Below are positions 1 through 23,432 of a stretch of DNA of 23,432 nucleotides, piece by piece. A model generated the notes under the pieces. That model saw only the letters and a list, made by a program, of their open reading frames with translations. It had not been told where the DNA came from and ran no database searches. This stretch comes from a virus (lineage: Duplodnaviria; Heunggongvirae; Uroviricota; Caudoviricetes), in the IMG/VR virus record IMGVR_UViG_2531839127_000024, positions 1 to 23,432 of that record; one strand, written 5' to 3'. Position numbers and translations under genes: made by a program. How positions within the stretch are numbered: position 1 is the first letter of the stretch; every line of letters starts with the position of its first letter.

Positions 1-996
1 TTATGGACGCATTATGGACATTCCTGACACCGGGTTAAGAGTCACAGCATCTTGTAAGAAATCCGGTGCAAAGTGTGCGTAGGTCATAGTTTGCTGAATG
101 TTAGAATGACCCAGGATGCGCTGCAATGTGATTATGTTACCTCCATTCATTATAAAATGTGTGGCAAATGTATGCCTCAAAACATGCACTGCCTGTCCGT
201 CAGGTAAATCGGGTTTTACTTCCCTGAGAGCATTGCGCACTTTGTAGTAACTGGCATTAAAAAGCCTGCCTGAATTTTTGGTCTTGATCCGTTTAATCAG
301 GTCCTGCGAAACGGGAATTGTCCTGCGCTTTCCGTTTTTAGTTTTCATAAACGTAACCATCTGGTTAATGATGTGTTCAGCTTTCAAATTAGACACTTCA
401 CTCCAGCGTCCACCAGTAGAAAGGCAGACCAGAGTTGCATTTAACTCATCACCATCAAGCATGGATAACAGCCGCGTAATCTCTTCACTGGACAAAAAAG
501 CCATTTCAGTAACAGCTTCACGTAACCGCTTAACCTCACGGAACGGGTTGTGAGAGTGGTATTCACCGGCGTCAATTAACTTGGTGAACATCCCGCTCAT
601 TATTGCCAGATGCCGATTTACGCTGGCTGGTTTAAGACCATCGTTCATCATTACAACGCGATAATCAGTTATCGTTTTCTTTGTTAGCTGGTCAGCTCTG
701 GACACTCCCATTTCTGCAAATTTGGCGATTATTGTCGTCAAACGCCCCCGTTCAATATTTCCACGCTCATGTGATTTTCCGTGATATATCCACCATCTGC
801 CTAACAACTCTGTAAGAGTTCGGCGGTCGGCTGGCTTCTCCAGCCACTCTTTGTTGTGGTAGTTAACCAGCACATGACGTTCGAATGCTTGAGCTTCACC
901 TTTAGTTTTAAATTTCCGCCTGATACGTTTTCCATCTGCACCCTGCGGTCTGACGTCCACTTCATAACGACCATCATCGAGCTTTTTAATAGACAT
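1..996 (-). CDS. int: Tyrosine integrase (P2 Int family), 331 aa
   Basis: ORF with ATG at 996 preceded by GGAGGG; C-terminal catalytic motifs LRHTFATHF and TYAHFAP (H-x-x-R ... Y) typical of tyrosine recombinases; sits next to the repressor as in P2. Stop codon is at positions 1-3, so att lies left of the window. Confidence 0.92.
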   Translation of the reverse strand: MSIKKLDDGRYEVDVRPQGADGKRIRRKFKTKGEAQAFERHVLVNYHNKEWLEKPADRRTLTELLGRWWIYHGKSHERGNIERGRLTTIIAKFAEMGVSRADQLTKKTITDYRVVMMNDGLKPASVNRHLAIMSGMFTKLIDAGEYHSHNPFREVKRLREAVTEMAFLSSEEITRLLSMLDGDELNATLVCLSTGGRWSEVSNLKAEHIINQMVTFMKTKNGKRRTIPVSQDLIKRIKTKNSGRLFNASYYKVRNALREVKPDLPDGQAVHVLRHTFATHFIMNGGNIITLQRILGHSNIQQTMTYAHFAPDFLQDAVTLNPVSGMSIMRP

Positions 997-3618: not shown

Positions 3619-5893
3619 AGCCTCCGGGCGTTTTGTCCCTCCGTCAGCATTTGCTGCAGGCACCGGTAAGGCGTTTACCGGTGCTTATGCATGGAACGCG
3701 CCACGCGAGGCCGTCGGGCGCGAAAGACTCCTTACACGTGACGAGATGCGTCAGGTGCAAGGTGTTTTATCCACGATTAACCGCCTGCCTTACTTTTTGC
3801 GCTCGCTGTTTACTTCACGCTATGACTACATCCGGCGCAATAAAAGCCCGGTGCACGGGTTTTATTTCCTCACATCCACTTTTCAGCGTCGTTTATGGCC
3901 GCGCATTGAGCGTGTGAATCAGCGCCATGAAATGAACACCGACGCGTCGTTACTGTTTCTGGCAGAGCGTGACCACTATGCGCGCCTGCCGGGAATGAAT
4001 GACAAGGAGCTGAAAAAGTTTGCCGCCCGTATCTCATCGCAGCTTTTCATGATGTATGAGGAACTCTGCGATGCCTGGGTGGATGCGCATGGCGAAAAAG
4101 AATCGCTGTTTACGGATGAGGCGCAGGCGCATCTGTATGGTCATGTTGCTGGCGCTGCACGTGCTTTCAATATTTCCCCTCTCTACTGGAAAAAATACCG
4201 TAAAGGACAGATGACCACGAGGCAGGCATATTCTGCCATTGCCCGTCTGTTTAACGATGAGTGGTGGACTCATCAGCTTAAAGGCCAGCGTATGCGCTGG
4301 CATGAGGCGTTACTGATTGCTGTCGGGGAGGTGAATAAAGACCGTTCTCCTTATGCCAGTAAACATGCCATTCGTGATGTGCGTGCGCGCCGCCAGGCAA
4401 ATCTGGAATTTCTTAAATCGTGTGACCTTGAAAACAGGGAAACCGGCGAGCGCATCGACCTTATCAGTAAGGTGATGGGAAGTATTTCTAATCCTGAAAT
4501 TCGCCGGATGGAGCTGATGAACACCATTGCCGGTATTGAGCGTTACGCCGCCGCAGAGGGTGATGTGGGGATGTTTATCACGCTGACCGCGCCGTCAAAG
4601 TATCACCCGACACGTCAGGTCGGAAAAGGCGAAAGTAAAACCGTCCAGCTAAATCACGGCTGGAACGATGAGGCATTTAATCCAAAGGATGCGCAGCGTT
4701 ATCTCTGCCGCATCTGGAGCCTGATGCGCACGGCATTCAAGGATAATGATTTACAGGTCTACGGTTTGCGTGTCGTCGAGCCACACCACGACGGAACGCC
4801 GCACTGGCATATGATGCTTTTTTGTAATCCACGTCAGCGTAACCAGATTATCGAAACCATGCGTCGCTACGCGCTCAAAGAGGATGGCGACGAAAGAGGA
4901 GCCGAGCGAAACCGTTTTCAGGCGAAACACCTTAACCGGGGCGGTGCTGCGGGGTATATCGCGAAATACATTTCAAAAAATATCGACGGCTATGCACTGG
5001 ATGGTCAGCTCGATAACGATACCGGCAGACCTCTGAAAGATACTGCCGCGGCTGTTACTGCATGGGCGTCAACGTGGCGCATCCCGCAATTTAAAACGGT
5101 TGGTCTGCCGACAATGGGGGCTTACCGTGAACTACGCAAATTGCCTCGCGGCGTCAGCATTGCTGATGAGTTTGACGAACGCGTCGAGGCTGCACGCGCT
5201 GCCGCAGACAGTGGCGATTTTGCGTTGTATATCAGCGCGCAGGGTGGGGCAAATGTCCCGCGCGATTGTCAGACTGTCAGGGTTGCCCGTAGCCCGTCGG
5301 ATGACGTTAACGAGTACGAGGAAGAAGTCGAGAGAGTGGTCGGCATTTACGCGCCGCATCTCGGCGCGCGTCATATTCATATCACCAGAACGACGGACTG
5401 GCGCATTGTGCCGAAAGTTCCGGTCGTTGAGCCTTTGACTTTAAAAAGCGGCATCGCCGCGCCTCGGAGTCCTGTCAATAACTGTGGAAAGCTCACCGGT
5501 GGTGATGCTTCGTTACCGGCTCCCACACCTTCTGAGCACGCCGCAGCAGTGCTTAATCTGGTTGATGACGGTGTTATCGAATGGAATGACCCGGAGGTCG
5601 TGAGGGCGCTCAGAAGCGCATTAAAACACGGTCTGAGAAGACCAAACCGTCAGCAAAGAAACGGAAACCCGTTAAAACCGCATGAAATAGCGCCATCGGC
5701 CAGACTGACCCGGTCAGAACGATTGCAAATTACCCGTATCCGCGTTGACCTCGCTCAGAACGGTATCAGGCCGCAACGATGGGAGCTTGAGGCGCTGGTG
5801 CGTGGCGCGACCGTAAATTATGACGGGAAAAAATTCACGTATCCGGTCGCTGATGAGTGGCCGGGATTCTCAACAGTAATGGAGTGGACATGA
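3608..5893 (+). CDS. A: Rolling-circle replication initiator A (761 aa)
   Basis: From ATG 3608 the protein starts MAVKASGRFVPP and is exactly 761 aa, matching P2 gpA as I recall it; contains HWHMMLF (HUH-like) motif. Track start at 3566 is TTG. Confidence 0.9.
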   Translation: MAVKASGRFVPPSAFAAGTGKAFTGAYAWNAPREAVGRERLLTRDEMRQVQGVLSTINRLPYFLRSLFTSRYDYIRRNKSPVHGFYFLTSTFQRRLWPRIERVNQRHEMNTDASLLFLAERDHYARLPGMNDKELKKFAARISSQLFMMYEELCDAWVDAHGEKESLFTDEAQAHLYGHVAGAARAFNISPLYWKKYRKGQMTTRQAYSAIARLFNDEWWTHQLKGQRMRWHEALLIAVGEVNKDRSPYASKHAIRDVRARRQANLEFLKSCDLENRETGERIDLISKVMGSISNPEIRRMELMNTIAGIERYAAAEGDVGMFITLTAPSKYHPTRQVGKGESKTVQLNHGWNDEAFNPKDAQRYLCRIWSLMRTAFKDNDLQVYGLRVVEPHHDGTPHWHMMLFCNPRQRNQIIETMRRYALKEDGDERGAERNRFQAKHLNRGGAAGYIAKYISKNIDGYALDGQLDNDTGRPLKDTAAAVTAWASTWRIPQFKTVGLPTMGAYRELRKLPRGVSIADEFDERVEAARAAADSGDFALYISAQGGANVPRDCQTVRVARSPSDDVNEYEEEVERVVGIYAPHLGARHIHITRTTDWRIVPKVPVVEPLTLKSGIAAPRSPVNNCGKLTGGDASLPAPTPSEHAAAVLNLVDDGVIEWNDPEVVRALRSALKHGLRRPNRQQRNGNPLKPHEIAPSARLTRSERLQITRIRVDLAQNGIRPQRWELEALVRGATVNYDGKKFTYPVADEWPGFSTVMEWT

Positions 5894-19885: not shown

Positions 19886-20489
19886 TTCGCGACTGCTGCC
19901 GACCGGCTCATCACTGCTTGAAGTTGCCGCCGCAAAAGCCTGTGCGGAAATTGAAAAAACGCCGGTCAGTATTCGTGAGCTGTGGAACCCGGATACCTGT
20001 CCGGCAAATCTGCTGCCGTGGCTGGCGTGGTCATTTTCGGTTGACCGCTGGGATGATAAGTGGCCGGAAGCGACAAAACGCGCTGTTATCCGCGATGCGT
20101 ATTTCATTCACTGCCATAAGGGCACTATTGGTGCGATTCGCCGTGTGGTGGAGCCACTCGGCTATCTGATTGAGGTGAGGGAGTGGTGGCAGCTCAACGA
20201 GGAGCCGGGGACGTTCCGTATCGTTGTCGGCGTGCTTGAGCAGGGTATTACCGAGGAAATGTATCAGGAGCTGGAGCGCCTCGTTGCTGATGCAAAACCG
20301 GCAAGCCGCCATCTGACGGGACTGGCTATCAGTTTAAGTACAACCGGCAACATTTTTGCCGGTGCGGGATGCTATCACGGCGACGCCCTGACGGTTTATC
20401 CCTACACCCCGGAGGCCATTATTGTCGGAGGGGATTATTTCCCGGCCTCGGCCATTCATTTAATTGATAACCTGAGAGTAAACGCATGA
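19878..20489 (+). CDS. I: Baseplate/tail protein I (203 aa)
   Basis: GGAGG RBS; overlaps the J stop and the H start; synteny with P2 I. Confidence 0.85.
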   Translation: MSDSRLLPTGSSLLEVAAAKACAEIEKTPVSIRELWNPDTCPANLLPWLAWSFSVDRWDDKWPEATKRAVIRDAYFIHCHKGTIGAIRRVVEPLGYLIEVREWWQLNEEPGTFRIVVGVLEQGITEEMYQELERLVADAKPASRHLTGLAISLSTTGNIFAGAGCYHGDALTVYPYTPEAIIVGGDYFPASAIHLIDNLRVNA

Positions 20490-21898
20490 CAGTGAAATAC
20501 TACGCCATTCTGACTAATCAGGGCGCAGCACGGCTGGCTAACGCGACGATGCTCGGCAGTAAGCTGAATCTGACGCAAATGGCCGTTGGTGATGCGAATG
20601 GTGTCTTGCCGACACCAGACCCGGCACAGACAAAACTGATTAACCAGAAACGCATCGCGCCGCTGAATCTTCTGAGTGTTGACCCGAACAACCAGAGCCA
20701 GATTATTGCGGAGCAAATCATCCCTGAGAACGAGGGCGGATTCTGGATCCGTGAGATTGGGCTTTATGATGATGAAGGCGTACTCATTGCGGTGGCGAAC
20801 TGCCCGGAAACGTACAAACCGCAGTTGCAGGAAGGCAGCGGTCGTACCCAGACTATCCGCATGATTCTGGTTGTCACGAATACCGAAGCCATCACGCTGA
20901 AAATCGACCCGTCGGTGGTACTGGCGACCCGTAAATACGTGGATGATGAAGTCCTGGAATTAAAGCTGTATGTGGATGACCAGATGAGAAACCACATTGC
21001 CGCACAGGATCCTCATACCCAGTATGCACAGAAACATAATCCGACATTTACCGGAGAACCAAAAGCGCCGACGCCTGCCGCAGGAAATAACACCACGCGG
21101 ATTGCGACCACTGCGTTTGTACAGGCCGCTATTACCGCTCTGATTAACGGTGCGCCTGCCACGCTGGATACACTGAAAGAAATTGCCGCAGCCATTAACA
21201 ATGACCCGAAATTCAGCACCACCATTAACAATGCGCTGTCAGGTAAGCAGCCACTGGATGAGACGCTGACTCATTTGAGTGGGAAGGATGTTGCCGGTCT
21301 TCTCGCATACCTTGGTTTGGGAGAAGGCTCTGCATTACCTGTTGGTGTCCCTGTTCCGTGGCCTTCAGCCACTCCGCCAACAGGCTGGCTGAAATGCAAT
21401 GGTGCGGCTTTTTCTGCTGAAGAATACCCGGAACTGGCAAAGGCTTACCCGACAAATAAATTGCCAGATTTACGTGGTGAGTTTATTCGTGGCTGGGATG
21501 ACGGGCGAGGGATTGATGAGGGGCGCATACTTCTCAGTTGTCAGAGTTTTGCTTTCCAGGACCATGCGCACGCTCTGCCAACCGGAGTGGGTAATCCGTC
21601 AGACCAGATGGAAAGCGATATCTATGCGGTTTTCAACGATGTACCAGAAATACCCAGTGCGGCCCTGAGTCCATCGTCGTCAGGAACATCATGGGACGCA
21701 ACCAGTAGGGCAGACAAGGTAATCCTTTATCGCAAGGACCTTTCACCAACAGGTAATAACAACGCAATAGCGACCGGATTACCACCATTCAGGACTTACA
21801 GGGCATCGACCTCAGACGGTGTTACTCATCCGTCCGTGTACGCATCTGAAACCCGTCCGCGCAACATTGCATTTAACTACATCGTGAGGGCTGCATAA
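20486..21898 (+). CDS. H: Tail fibre protein H (470 aa): conserved N-terminus, shared shaft segment, and collar-type receptor-binding tip
   Basis: N-terminus is P2 H-like (GGFWIREIGLYDDEGVLIAVAN); C-terminal tip has tail-collar-like motifs (LPDLRGEFIRGWDDGRGID, ETRPRNIAFNYIVRA). Residues encoded by 20879-21326 are duplicated in inverted orientation downstream. Confidence 0.9.
   Translation: MTVKYYAILTNQGAARLANATMLGSKLNLTQMAVGDANGVLPTPDPAQTKLINQKRIAPLNLLSVDPNNQSQIIAEQIIPENEGGFWIREIGLYDDEGVLIAVANCPETYKPQLQEGSGRTQTIRMILVVTNTEAITLKIDPSVVLATRKYVDDEVLELKLYVDDQMRNHIAAQDPHTQYAQKHNPTFTGEPKAPTPAAGNNTTRIATTAFVQAAITALINGAPATLDTLKEIAAAINNDPKFSTTINNALSGKQPLDETLTHLSGKDVAGLLAYLGLGEGSALPVGVPVPWPSATPPTGWLKCNGAAFSAEEYPELAKAYPTNKLPDLRGEFIRGWDDGRGIDEGRILLSCQSFAFQDHAHALPTGVGNPSDQMESDIYAVFNDVPEIPSAALSPSSSGTSWDATSRADKVILYRKDLSPTGNNNAIATGLPPFRTYRASTSDGVTHPSVYASETRPRNIAFNYIVRAA
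20879..21326 (+). repeat. Left arm of 448-bp perfect inverted repeat (inside H)
   Basis: Reverse complement of 22985-23432 is identical at every block I compared (position p pairs with 44311 minus p); truncated by the window end, so true length is at least 448 bp. Confidence 0.9.
21300..21325 (+). other. Candidate 26-bp serine-invertase crossover site (hix/gix/cix-like), left
   Basis: TTCTCGCATACC-TT-GGTTTGGGAGAA: two imperfect 12-bp inverted half-sites of the TTnTCnnAAACC type around a central dinucleotide, ending 1 bp inside the inner boundary of the inverted repeat. Confidence 0.6.
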
Positions 21899-22503
21899 TG
21901 GCGAAAGCAAAATTAAACAGTGCGTTTATTGCCACCGTGGCAGGAGAAATCACTGTGTACAACTACCGGGGCGACACCCGCGAATACATATCCTCATCGG
22001 TTGAGTATCTGCCTGTGGGGGTGGGTATTCCTGCCAATTCCTGTACCGATGCGCCCGGCACACATAAGGCTGGTTATGCAATCTGCCGTTCTGCAGATTT
22101 TAACTCATGGGAATATGTGCCAGACCATCGCGGTGAAATTGTCTATGGCATCGAAACGGGGGAATCAAAAGAAATTACTGTGCCGGGGGATTACCCTGAA
22201 AATACGACCACTTTTGCCCCATTAACGCCATACGATAAATGGGATGGTGAGAAATGGGTAACAGATACCGAGGCACAGCATAGCGCCGCAGTAGATGCAG
22301 CAGAAGTACAGCGCCAGTCTCTGATTGATGCTGCTATGGCTTCCATCAGTCTGATTCAGCTGAAATTGCAGGCCGGACGTAAACTGACGCAGGCAGAAAC
22401 AACCCGCCTTAACGCTGTGCTGGATTACATTGACGCGGTGACGGCAATAGATACCAGCACCGCGCCTGATATTATTTGGCCTGTATTCCCTGAGACTGAT
22501 TAA
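21898..22503 (+). CDS. G: Tail fibre assembly chaperone (Tfa/gpG-like), 201 aa
   Basis: ATG overlaps the H stop; N-terminal VYNYRGDTREY...LPANSCTDAP is typical of lambda Tfa/Mu U-type chaperones. Confidence 0.85.
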   Translation: MAKAKLNSAFIATVAGEITVYNYRGDTREYISSSVEYLPVGVGIPANSCTDAPGTHKAGYAICRSADFNSWEYVPDHRGEIVYGIETGESKEITVPGDYPENTTTFAPLTPYDKWDGEKWVTDTEAQHSAAVDAAEVQRQSLIDAAMASISLIQLKLQAGRKLTQAETTRLNAVLDYIDAVTAIDTSTAPDIIWPVFPETD

Positions 22504-22669
22504 CCTCAATCAGTATTGGTTCGCCTTTCTCATTAATTGTTAGCTCCATGCCCTGAGGAATTTCTGTCATAGTAAAAAACCAGTTGTCCTCCGGTAATTC
22601 AATAGCCCCGGTCACGTCATGAAGACCGGGGATTACTTCAGTCAAAGTAACTGGATTAAACAGGCGCAC
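22472..22669 (-). CDS. Putative short alternative tail fibre assembly chaperone (65-86 aa depending on start)
   Basis: Minus-strand ORF immediately downstream of the alternative fibre tip; GGAGGG RBS before GTG at 22669 (track start 22732); 3' end overlaps G convergently by 32 nt. No Tfa motif recognised, so the call is positional. Confidence 0.4.
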   Translation of the reverse strand: MRLFNPVTLTEVIPGLHDVTGAIELPEDNWFFTMTEIPQGMELTINEKGEPILIEVNQSQGIQAK

Positions 22670-23432
22670 AATAAACCCTCCATGAAAAAGCATTTGATGA
22701 TGGTCTGCCGTCGTACATCTGGCAGCGGGCATAAAAGCCGGTATTTGTTACCTGATCATCCACGATCATTGAAACGTGAACATTATTAGGTGTGCTCTCG
22801 TAATCCGTTCTTATTCTTTCTGCGATACTGATAAAACGTGAAAGTTTAGGCAGTGCAATTGGGTAAACGACTTTAGCCAGTCCATTATCATTAGATCCAC
22901 CGGTTCCAAATACTTCTATTGCACCATCTGACCAGCGTACCCATGCACCATTGGCATTAGCTCCTCGCTGAATGACATATCTGGCTTCTCCCAAACCAAG
23001 GTATGCGAGAAGACCGGCAACATCCTTCCCACTCAAATGAGTCAGCGTCTCATCCAGTGGCTGCTTACCTGACAGCGCATTGTTAATGGTGGTGCTGAAT
23101 TTCGGGTCATTGTTAATGGCTGCGGCAATTTCTTTCAGTGTATCCAGCGTGGCAGGCGCACCGTTAATCAGAGCGGTAATAGCGGCCTGTACAAACGCAG
23201 TGGTCGCAATCCGCGTGGTGTTATTTCCTGCGGCAGGCGTCGGCGCTTTTGGTTCTCCGGTAAATGTCGGATTATGTTTCTGTGCATACTGGGTATGAGG
23301 ATCCTGTGCGGCAATGTGGTTTCTCATCTGGTCATCCACATACAGCTTTAATTCCAGGACTTCATCATCCACGTATTTACGGGTCGCCAGTACCACCGAC
23401 GGGTCGATTTTCAGCGTGATGGCTTCGGTATT
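22656..23432 (-). CDS. Alternative tail fibre gene or gene segment, partial; 5' end beyond the window
   Basis: Minus-strand ORF whose first 149 codons in the window are identical to H (inverted repeat) and then diverge into a different 110-aa C-terminal tip; no in-frame stop up to the window edge. Confidence 0.75.
   Translation of the reverse strand, partial: NTEAITLKIDPSVVLATRKYVDDEVLELKLYVDDQMRNHIAAQDPHTQYAQKHNPTFTGEPKAPTPAAGNNTTRIATTAFVQAAITALINGAPATLDTLKEIAAAINNDPKFSTTINNALSGKQPLDETLTHLSGKDVAGLLAYLGLGEARYVIQRGANANGAWVRWSDGAIEVFGTGGSNDNGLAKVVYPIALPKLSRFISIAERIRTDYESTPNNVHVSMIVDDQVTNTGFYARCQMYDGRPSSNAFSWRVYCAPV
22985..23432 (-). repeat. Right arm of 448-bp perfect inverted repeat (truncated by window end)
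   Basis: See left arm; identity stops exactly at 21326/22985. Confidence 0.9.
22986..23011 (-). other. Candidate 26-bp serine-invertase crossover site (hix/gix/cix-like), right
   Basis: TTCTCCCAAACC-AA-GGTATGCGAGAA read on the plus strand; inverted copy of the left site, again at the inner repeat boundary. Confidence 0.6.

Follow-up and report, generated by a model that had tools for sequence, protein, structure and literature searches.

A short conserved gene behind the alternative tail-fibre tip of a P2-like prophage encodes a putative stand-alone Tfa N-terminal-type domain

The invertible module and the start of its short minus-strand gene

The window (the whole stretch of 23,432 nucleotides analysed here) is the late/tail region of an E. 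coli prophage that is P2-like (Peduovirus-type) and carries an invertible tail-fibre module. In the G-on orientation present here, the tail-fibre gene H (20486-21898, plus strand; 470 aa, Phage_tail_fib and Collar domains) is followed by G (21898-22503, plus strand; 201 aa), a classical two-domain tail-fibre assembly protein (Caudo_TAP, PF02413, E 2e-30, 106 bits; phrog_105, E 2e-96) that is the chaperone for the currently expressed tip. The minus strand carries the alternative-tip ORF (22656-23396, '246 aa'), whose unique part of about 109 aa (22656-22984) is of the Gp53-like_C type and ends in ...FSWRVYCAPV. Its match to Pfam PF21882 is weak (E 0.045), and the tip profile matched the R1/R2 pyocin fibres 6cxb, 6cl5, 6ct8 and 6cl6 at E 0.002-0.02, a weak resemblance to their lectin-fold foot. 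Between the alternative tip and the end of G, and convergent with G, lies the short ORF that is the subject of this work. NCBIfam gave zero matches for the short ORF, G or the alternative tip.

The same cassette adjoins a serine recombinase gene in near-identical prophages of complete E. coli genomes; the window itself stops at 23432, short of the expected position of that gene. Strain NCTC9064 was found to be alt-on, that is, with the alternative tip fused to the constant part of H and followed by the short gene, and Combat2C1 showed the G-on arrangement. In E. coli strains 61 and 64 (NZ_CP048326.1 and NZ_CP048322.1), whose records are of almost equal length, the same coordinates 1558117-1559965 are occupied in opposite orientations, which is consistent with an active inversion switch. 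Because opposite orientations occur in near-identical prophages, the module appears to be a working switch of the Mu/P1 style.

Alt-on and G-on genomes have window positions 21309-22999 in common and diverge outside them. The collinearity break between the two orientations placed the left crossover site (26 bp, TTCTCGCATACCTTGGTTTGGGAGAA) at 21300-21325 on the plus strand, inside the codons for ...LGLGE, and the right one (26 bp, TTCTCCCAAACCAAGGTATGCGAGAA) at 22986-23011 on the plus strand, the latter also by comparison with Combat2C1, in which the right site reads TTCTCCCAAACCAACGTTTATGAAAA. The two 26-bp sites are inverted relative to each other, have a central dinucleotide and lie at the segment boundaries. 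We take them to resemble the hix/gix/cix consensus sites. The outer half of the right site in the window is the H-constant version (GGTATGCGAGAA) as against the recombinase-proximal version (CGTTTATGAAAA) in Combat2C1, and none of the complete E. coli genomes covers at least 80% of 20486-23432 in one place. Thus the right end of the window looks like an alt-on junction, and it may have arisen as an assembly chimera from a population of mixed orientation, in which case the long inverted repeat there would not be genuine, the '246-aa' alternative-tip ORF would be partly artefactual and the short gene would be unaffected. It should also be pointed out that a 448-nt inverted repeat, 100% identical between 20879-21326 and 22985-23432, carries the crossover sites at its inner ends and is cut exactly by the window end.

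The initial annotation had described the short minus-strand ORF at 22472-22732 as 65-86 aa long against 201 aa for G, overlapping the 3' end of G convergently by 32 nt and the stop of the alternative tip by 14 nt or more. All of these values agree with the ORF list. The overlap with G occupies 22472-22503 (G ends at 22503), and the overlap with the tip stop depends on which of three in-frame starts is used: 14 nt for the 65-aa form starting at GTG 22669, 38 nt for the 73-aa form (ATG 22693) and 77 nt for the 86-aa form (ATG 22732).

The 65-aa form (22472-22669, minus strand, GTG start and TAA stop; product MRLFNPVTLTEVIPGLHDVTGAIELPEDNWFFTMTEIPQGMELTINEKGEPILIEVNQSQGIQAK, pI 4.2, 7.3 kDa) is favoured over the longer two because four kinds of sequence evidence converge on it. 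First, a Shine-Dalgarno sequence, GGAGGG (22676-22681, minus strand), precedes the GTG by 6 nt and falls within the W-R-V codons of the tip, and GGAG(G/A) stands at the same position in most of the fetched loci, a few having GGAGT or GGGAGG. Second, PGAP calls exactly this 198-nt CDS as WP_001440573.1, 'hypothetical protein'. Third, the homologues start with M/V-RLFNP, the 73- and 86-aa extensions being unconserved in the family alignment, and the phrog_5400 match leaves out the first 21 residues of the 86-aa ORF. Fourth, an in-frame stop lies no more than 22 codons upstream in 18 of 46 distinct loci, sometimes just 1-2 codons before the start. The start codon among these 46 loci is ATG in 31 and GTG in 15.

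Mis-called starts are common in this small family, with 73-, 86- and 87-aa versions among the database homologues. For example, Escherichia phage S164 (3923-4186) was deposited with an 87-aa ORF bearing an unconserved N-terminal extension; the tip upstream of it is a 148-aa remnant adjoining the recombinase.

Conservation, selection and synteny of the short gene

Searching 5.8 billion proteins yielded 123 homologues, nearly all of 57-69 aa and all annotated 'hypothetical', from at least eight genera of Enterobacterales (Escherichia, Enterobacter, Salmonella, Citrobacter, Hafnia, Xenorhabdus, Erwinia and Pantoea), with identity reaching down to about 58%. The exact protein is present on 997 contigs, and the cassette was found in 106 of 5426 complete E. 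coli genomes at a coverage of at least 80%. Among 66 loci retrieved by sequence pattern from GTDB genomes and IMG/VR, the open frame of 57-69 aa is kept in about 60. For 38 distinct coding sequences that are only about 55-70% identical, the median NG86 dN/dS was 0.14 in frame; pN/pS was about 1.0-1.8 in four of the other five frames and 0.35 in the third-position-aligned reverse frame, and all five alternative frames contain stop codons. The length, start and Shine-Dalgarno sequence of the gene are kept across genera. The small ORF is a real, conserved gene under purifying selection.

These results bear directly on the suggestion of the initial annotation that the ORF might be spurious, having arisen by chance on the antisense strand or overlap of its neighbours. 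It is indeed short and overlaps both neighbours, but the shared part amounts to only 46 of its 198 nt, and more than 120 homologues, the low dN/dS and the conserved loci rule this reading out; we assign it practically no probability.

Comparison with related prophages, which the initial annotation had proposed as a check, showed that the small ORF is conserved and follows the same type of tip. Of the fetched loci whose upstream tip is intact, nearly all have the gene behind a homologue of the alternative tip (...FSWRVYYAPV), and in nearly all of them the 14-nt overlap (22656-22669, minus strand, in the window) and the GGAG inside the W-R-V codons of the tip are kept. A reverse search seeded on the tip had 54 usable loci, of which 53 have a small ORF after the tip (50 recognised by pattern and three by inspection, a few being frameshifted or truncated). 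The 14-nt overlap was present in 48 of the 50 pattern-found ORFs; in two loci (L110 and L116), the tip and the small ORF are separated by a gap of 15 nt. As this conserved overlapping arrangement carries the ribosome-binding site of the small gene, it suggests that the tip and the small gene are probably translationally coupled. Meanwhile, pairwise identity among the small proteins tracks that among the tips (Mantel r 0.73, a value reached by none of 2000 permutations), as is expected for any tightly linked gene pair. Identities range over 52-100% in the core of the small protein and 29-100% in the tip.

On the other side of the gene, the arrangement varies. The convergent overlap with a G-type gene is 17, 20, 23, 29 or 32 nt in relatives, or is replaced by a gap of 26-87 nt, and the downstream partner can also be a different convergent tip, a sheath gene or nothing. 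Because both partner and overlap vary, the 32-nt overlap with G is incidental; a regulatory role for it was considered and rejected, as the overlap is unconserved.

Seven P2-like contigs (L041, L047, L050, L052, L053, L064 and L067) have no inversion module. Their gene order is gpI, H, small ORF, sheath and tube, so that the small ORF occupies the G slot, and neither a Caudo_TAP gene nor a recombinase was found in them between locus positions of about 3300 and 9000.

Relationship to tail-fibre assembly proteins

The small ORF matches phrog_5400 (E 7.9e-25), with residues 22-85 of the 86-aa ORF aligned to positions 1-66 of the 145-position profile. PHROG 5400, of unknown function, is the current catalogue entry of the small family, and its profile mixes N-domain-only and two-domain members. 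The small ORF gave no match to PF02413 (Caudo_TAP) even at E <= 1. Homology to Tfa proteins was detected through two-domain relatives. Cronobacter phage JK004 gene_1 (128 aa), which adjoins fibre genes with Gp53-like_C tips, aligns over residues 1-58 (tblastn E 4e-5) and continues for about 70 aa past that boundary into a Caudo_TAP C-terminus (E 1e-20). A second Caudo_TAP protein of 131 aa (P0137) was recovered by phmmer at a library-wide E of 8e-6 and aligned to the family profile by hhalign with Prob 99.1 and E 9e-19. When the family profile was compared with an alignment of 19 classical Tfa proteins, which holds no member of the small family, a local match was obtained (Prob 86%, E 5e-6) that aligns just before the linker and the C-terminal helices. 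The profile reached significance only against this 19-sequence alignment, and the comparison with the G of the window alone was not significant.

The small protein ends at residue 65 and lacks the C-terminal helical domain (...YR.LL.RVD....WP...), as do all members of 57-69 aa. On these alignments it is a predicted stand-alone Tfa N-terminal-type domain that ends at the domain boundary. The homology to Tfa sought as a check of the initial annotation thus held for the N-terminal domain, through JK004 gene_1 and the 131-aa protein, and failed for the C-terminal domain, which is absent. Together with the position in the G slot, the N-domain homology supports the minimal-chaperone option as a putative assignment.

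Several other searches were less productive. Searching the PDB sequences with the small-family profile gave chance-level matches only, JK004 gene_1 as a seed retrieved no loci from viral contigs, and single-sequence AF2 models were too poor for use, with a pLDDT of 51 (small protein) and 46 (tip). Giant repeat proteins were set aside as homologues, their scores being made up of matches of about 8 bits summed over many repeats. The score of a protein of 2709 aa with Spiralin and DUF285 domains (P0121; phmmer E 2e-32) arises from 15 weak repeats of about 78 aa with 23-29% identity, and further matches were to a 1373-aa protein (P0129) and to others with He_PIG, SpaA or DUF5979 domains. Such matches probably reflect score summation over repeats rather than homology.

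The N-only architecture is not confined to one subfamily. In the inversion modules of two loci, both convergent partner genes are short and N-domain-only (481-666, plus strand, and 647-862, minus strand, in L116; 5001-5186, plus strand, and 5167-5382, minus strand, in L043). The second N-only subfamily among these partners begins with 'MWYWNP...' and is paired with a Gp53-like tip ending in '...YYFAEGY'; JK004 gene_1 is its two-domain counterpart. The architecture is therefore found in at least two subfamilies.

We next consider the reading, also raised in the initial annotation, that the gene is a non-functional remnant, namely the 5' part left when the convergent G cut a former two-domain Tfa' gene, now hitch-hiking with the tip. 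The existence of two-domain relatives (JK004 gene_1 and P0137), the end of the ORF inside G and a few disrupted copies would fit such a history. However, a dN/dS of 0.14 across sequences so divergent, the constancy of length, start and Shine-Dalgarno sequence across genera, the same end at the domain boundary whatever follows, and the use of the G slot by non-invertible phages all oppose it. Because selection and a constant architecture are both in evidence, the remnant reading is disfavoured and we hold it to be very improbable. Decay of the gene does happen in individual prophages: it is disrupted, by truncation to 9 aa or by a frameshift, with the tip intact, in IMGVR_UViG_2506520037_000005 (L026/L082) and in L124.

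Another possibility is a split chaperone, in which G, the Tfa of another prophage or a stand-alone C-domain protein would lend the N-only protein a C-terminal trimerisation domain in trans. E. coli genomes usually hold several Tfa genes, and phrog_3792 (78 positions) matches only residues 121-199 of G, so that C-domain-only proteins may exist. However, the alt-on orientation puts G antisense to the late transcript, the L043 and L116 modules have N-domain-only partners alone, and a phage dependent on a host-borne helper would be vulnerable. As the H-to-sheath/tube stretch that was searched in the seven non-invertible contigs contains no Caudo_TAP gene, these G-less genomes disfavour a domain acting in trans, and we regard the split arrangement as improbable.

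Putative role at the alternative tip

We consider it likely that the gene encodes a helper specific to the alternative tip, either a mini-chaperone or an accessory protein, whose translation is coupled to that of the tip. According to this proposal, inversion of the segment would fuse the constant part of H to the alternative tip, and the late transcript would then run through the tip and the small gene, with G antisense. As the ribosome-binding site and start of the small gene lie in the last tip codons, its translation would be coupled to that of the tip at the place where the tip polypeptide emerges. The small protein would bind the nascent lectin-foot-like tip, probably with one copy per tip subunit, and would either aid the folding and solubility of the tip or stay on the mature fibre as an accessory protein like Mu Tfa; the fibre itself would bring about trimerisation. 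Here we infer the translational coupling, the tip binding and the chaperone activity from sequence comparison. Because PF02413 failed to match and the trimerisation domain is absent, the classical chaperone mechanism cannot simply be assumed.

The known kind to which the protein is closest is that of the Tfa chaperones (lambda Tfa, P2 G, Mu U/U' and P1 U; PF02413). Like them, the small gene lies directly downstream of and co-oriented with a fibre gene, fills the G slot and is specific to one type of tip; its product is homologous to the N-domain of two-domain members, and the tip-plus-chaperone cassette is invertible in the style of Mu and P1. Unlike them, the protein has 65 aa instead of about 130-200, lacks the whole conserved C-terminal helical domain (W..YR..L..VD...WP), which is the hallmark of the Tfa family and is thought to trimerise the chaperone, falls below the Pfam threshold and is annotated as hypothetical. 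The small N-only family is covered by no Pfam or NCBIfam family, and a literature search on WP_001440573.1 and on truncated or N-only Tfa proteins turned up no specific report. In the modular model of Tfa derived from Mu Tfa (structure 5YVQ) and Pam3 gp25, a variable N-terminal beta-domain binds the fibre and conserved C-terminal helices trimerise (PMC9608196).

R-pyocin fibres offer a further parallel, as those with a lectin-fold foot need a chaperone encoded downstream to be soluble and co-purify with it (PMC6363177). The chaperones concerned are PA0621 and Prf16, and the alternative tip is itself weakly similar to the R1/R2 foot domain. Pam3 gp25, T4 gp57A and T4 gp38 are similarly small, phage-encoded, fibre-specific helpers. 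The N-terminal beta-sandwich of Pam3 gp25 binds the fibre tip (PMC9608196), and this protein keeps the C-terminal trimerising helices that the small protein lacks. No homology between the small protein and either Pam3 gp25 or T4 gp57A was detected here. T4 gp57A is a general helical chaperone, and PA0621, at about 150 aa, is presumably full length.

The protein might also be an adhesin or accessory subunit instead of a folding chaperone, staying on the mature tip and adding to or masking receptor binding in the manner of Mu Tfa, T2-type gp38 or a transient cap. This alternative partly overlaps the mini-chaperone or accessory reading preferred above. Mu and Ur-lambda Tfa have been reported to stay on mature virions via their N-domain (PMC9608196), the small protein consists of that binding domain only, and it co-varies with the tip. 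Its core is, however, more conserved than the tip, which is the opposite of what a diversifying receptor-contact surface would show, and a role as adhesin in place of folding helper seems rather unlikely to us.

A wider generalisation of the mini-chaperone reading would be that, for the whole class of lectin-foot tips (Gp53-like_C or R-pyocin-foot-like), a stand-alone fibre-binding domain of 6-7 kDa is the complete assembly factor. We put this forward tentatively, as a conjecture with a real prospect of being correct that we nevertheless stop short of favouring. If true, the engine of Tfa in current models, its conserved C-terminal trimerisation domain, would be dispensable; a monomeric, translationally coupled 'clamp' mechanism would take its place; and an unrecognised, widespread mini-chaperone would have to be transferred together with such tips when they are used to retarget phages or tailocins.

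The family would in any case represent a natural dissection of the two-domain Tfa, in which the putative specificity domain alone is under purifying selection and fills the G slot, and the real job of the C-terminal domain becomes directly testable in a simple P2-like system. It is relevant to fibre engineering as well, since fibres of the P2, P1, Mu and R-pyocin types need their cognate chaperone when they are exchanged to change host range, and a 198-nt gene overlapping the stop codon of the tip is easily lost. For annotation, a widespread family now carries the labels 'hypothetical' or 'unknown function', and gene callers often pick the wrong start (73 or 86 aa). A mirror image of the N-only family is hinted at by phrog_3792 ('tail assembly chaperone'), whose match on G, at about 22258-22494, points to stand-alone C-domain proteins.
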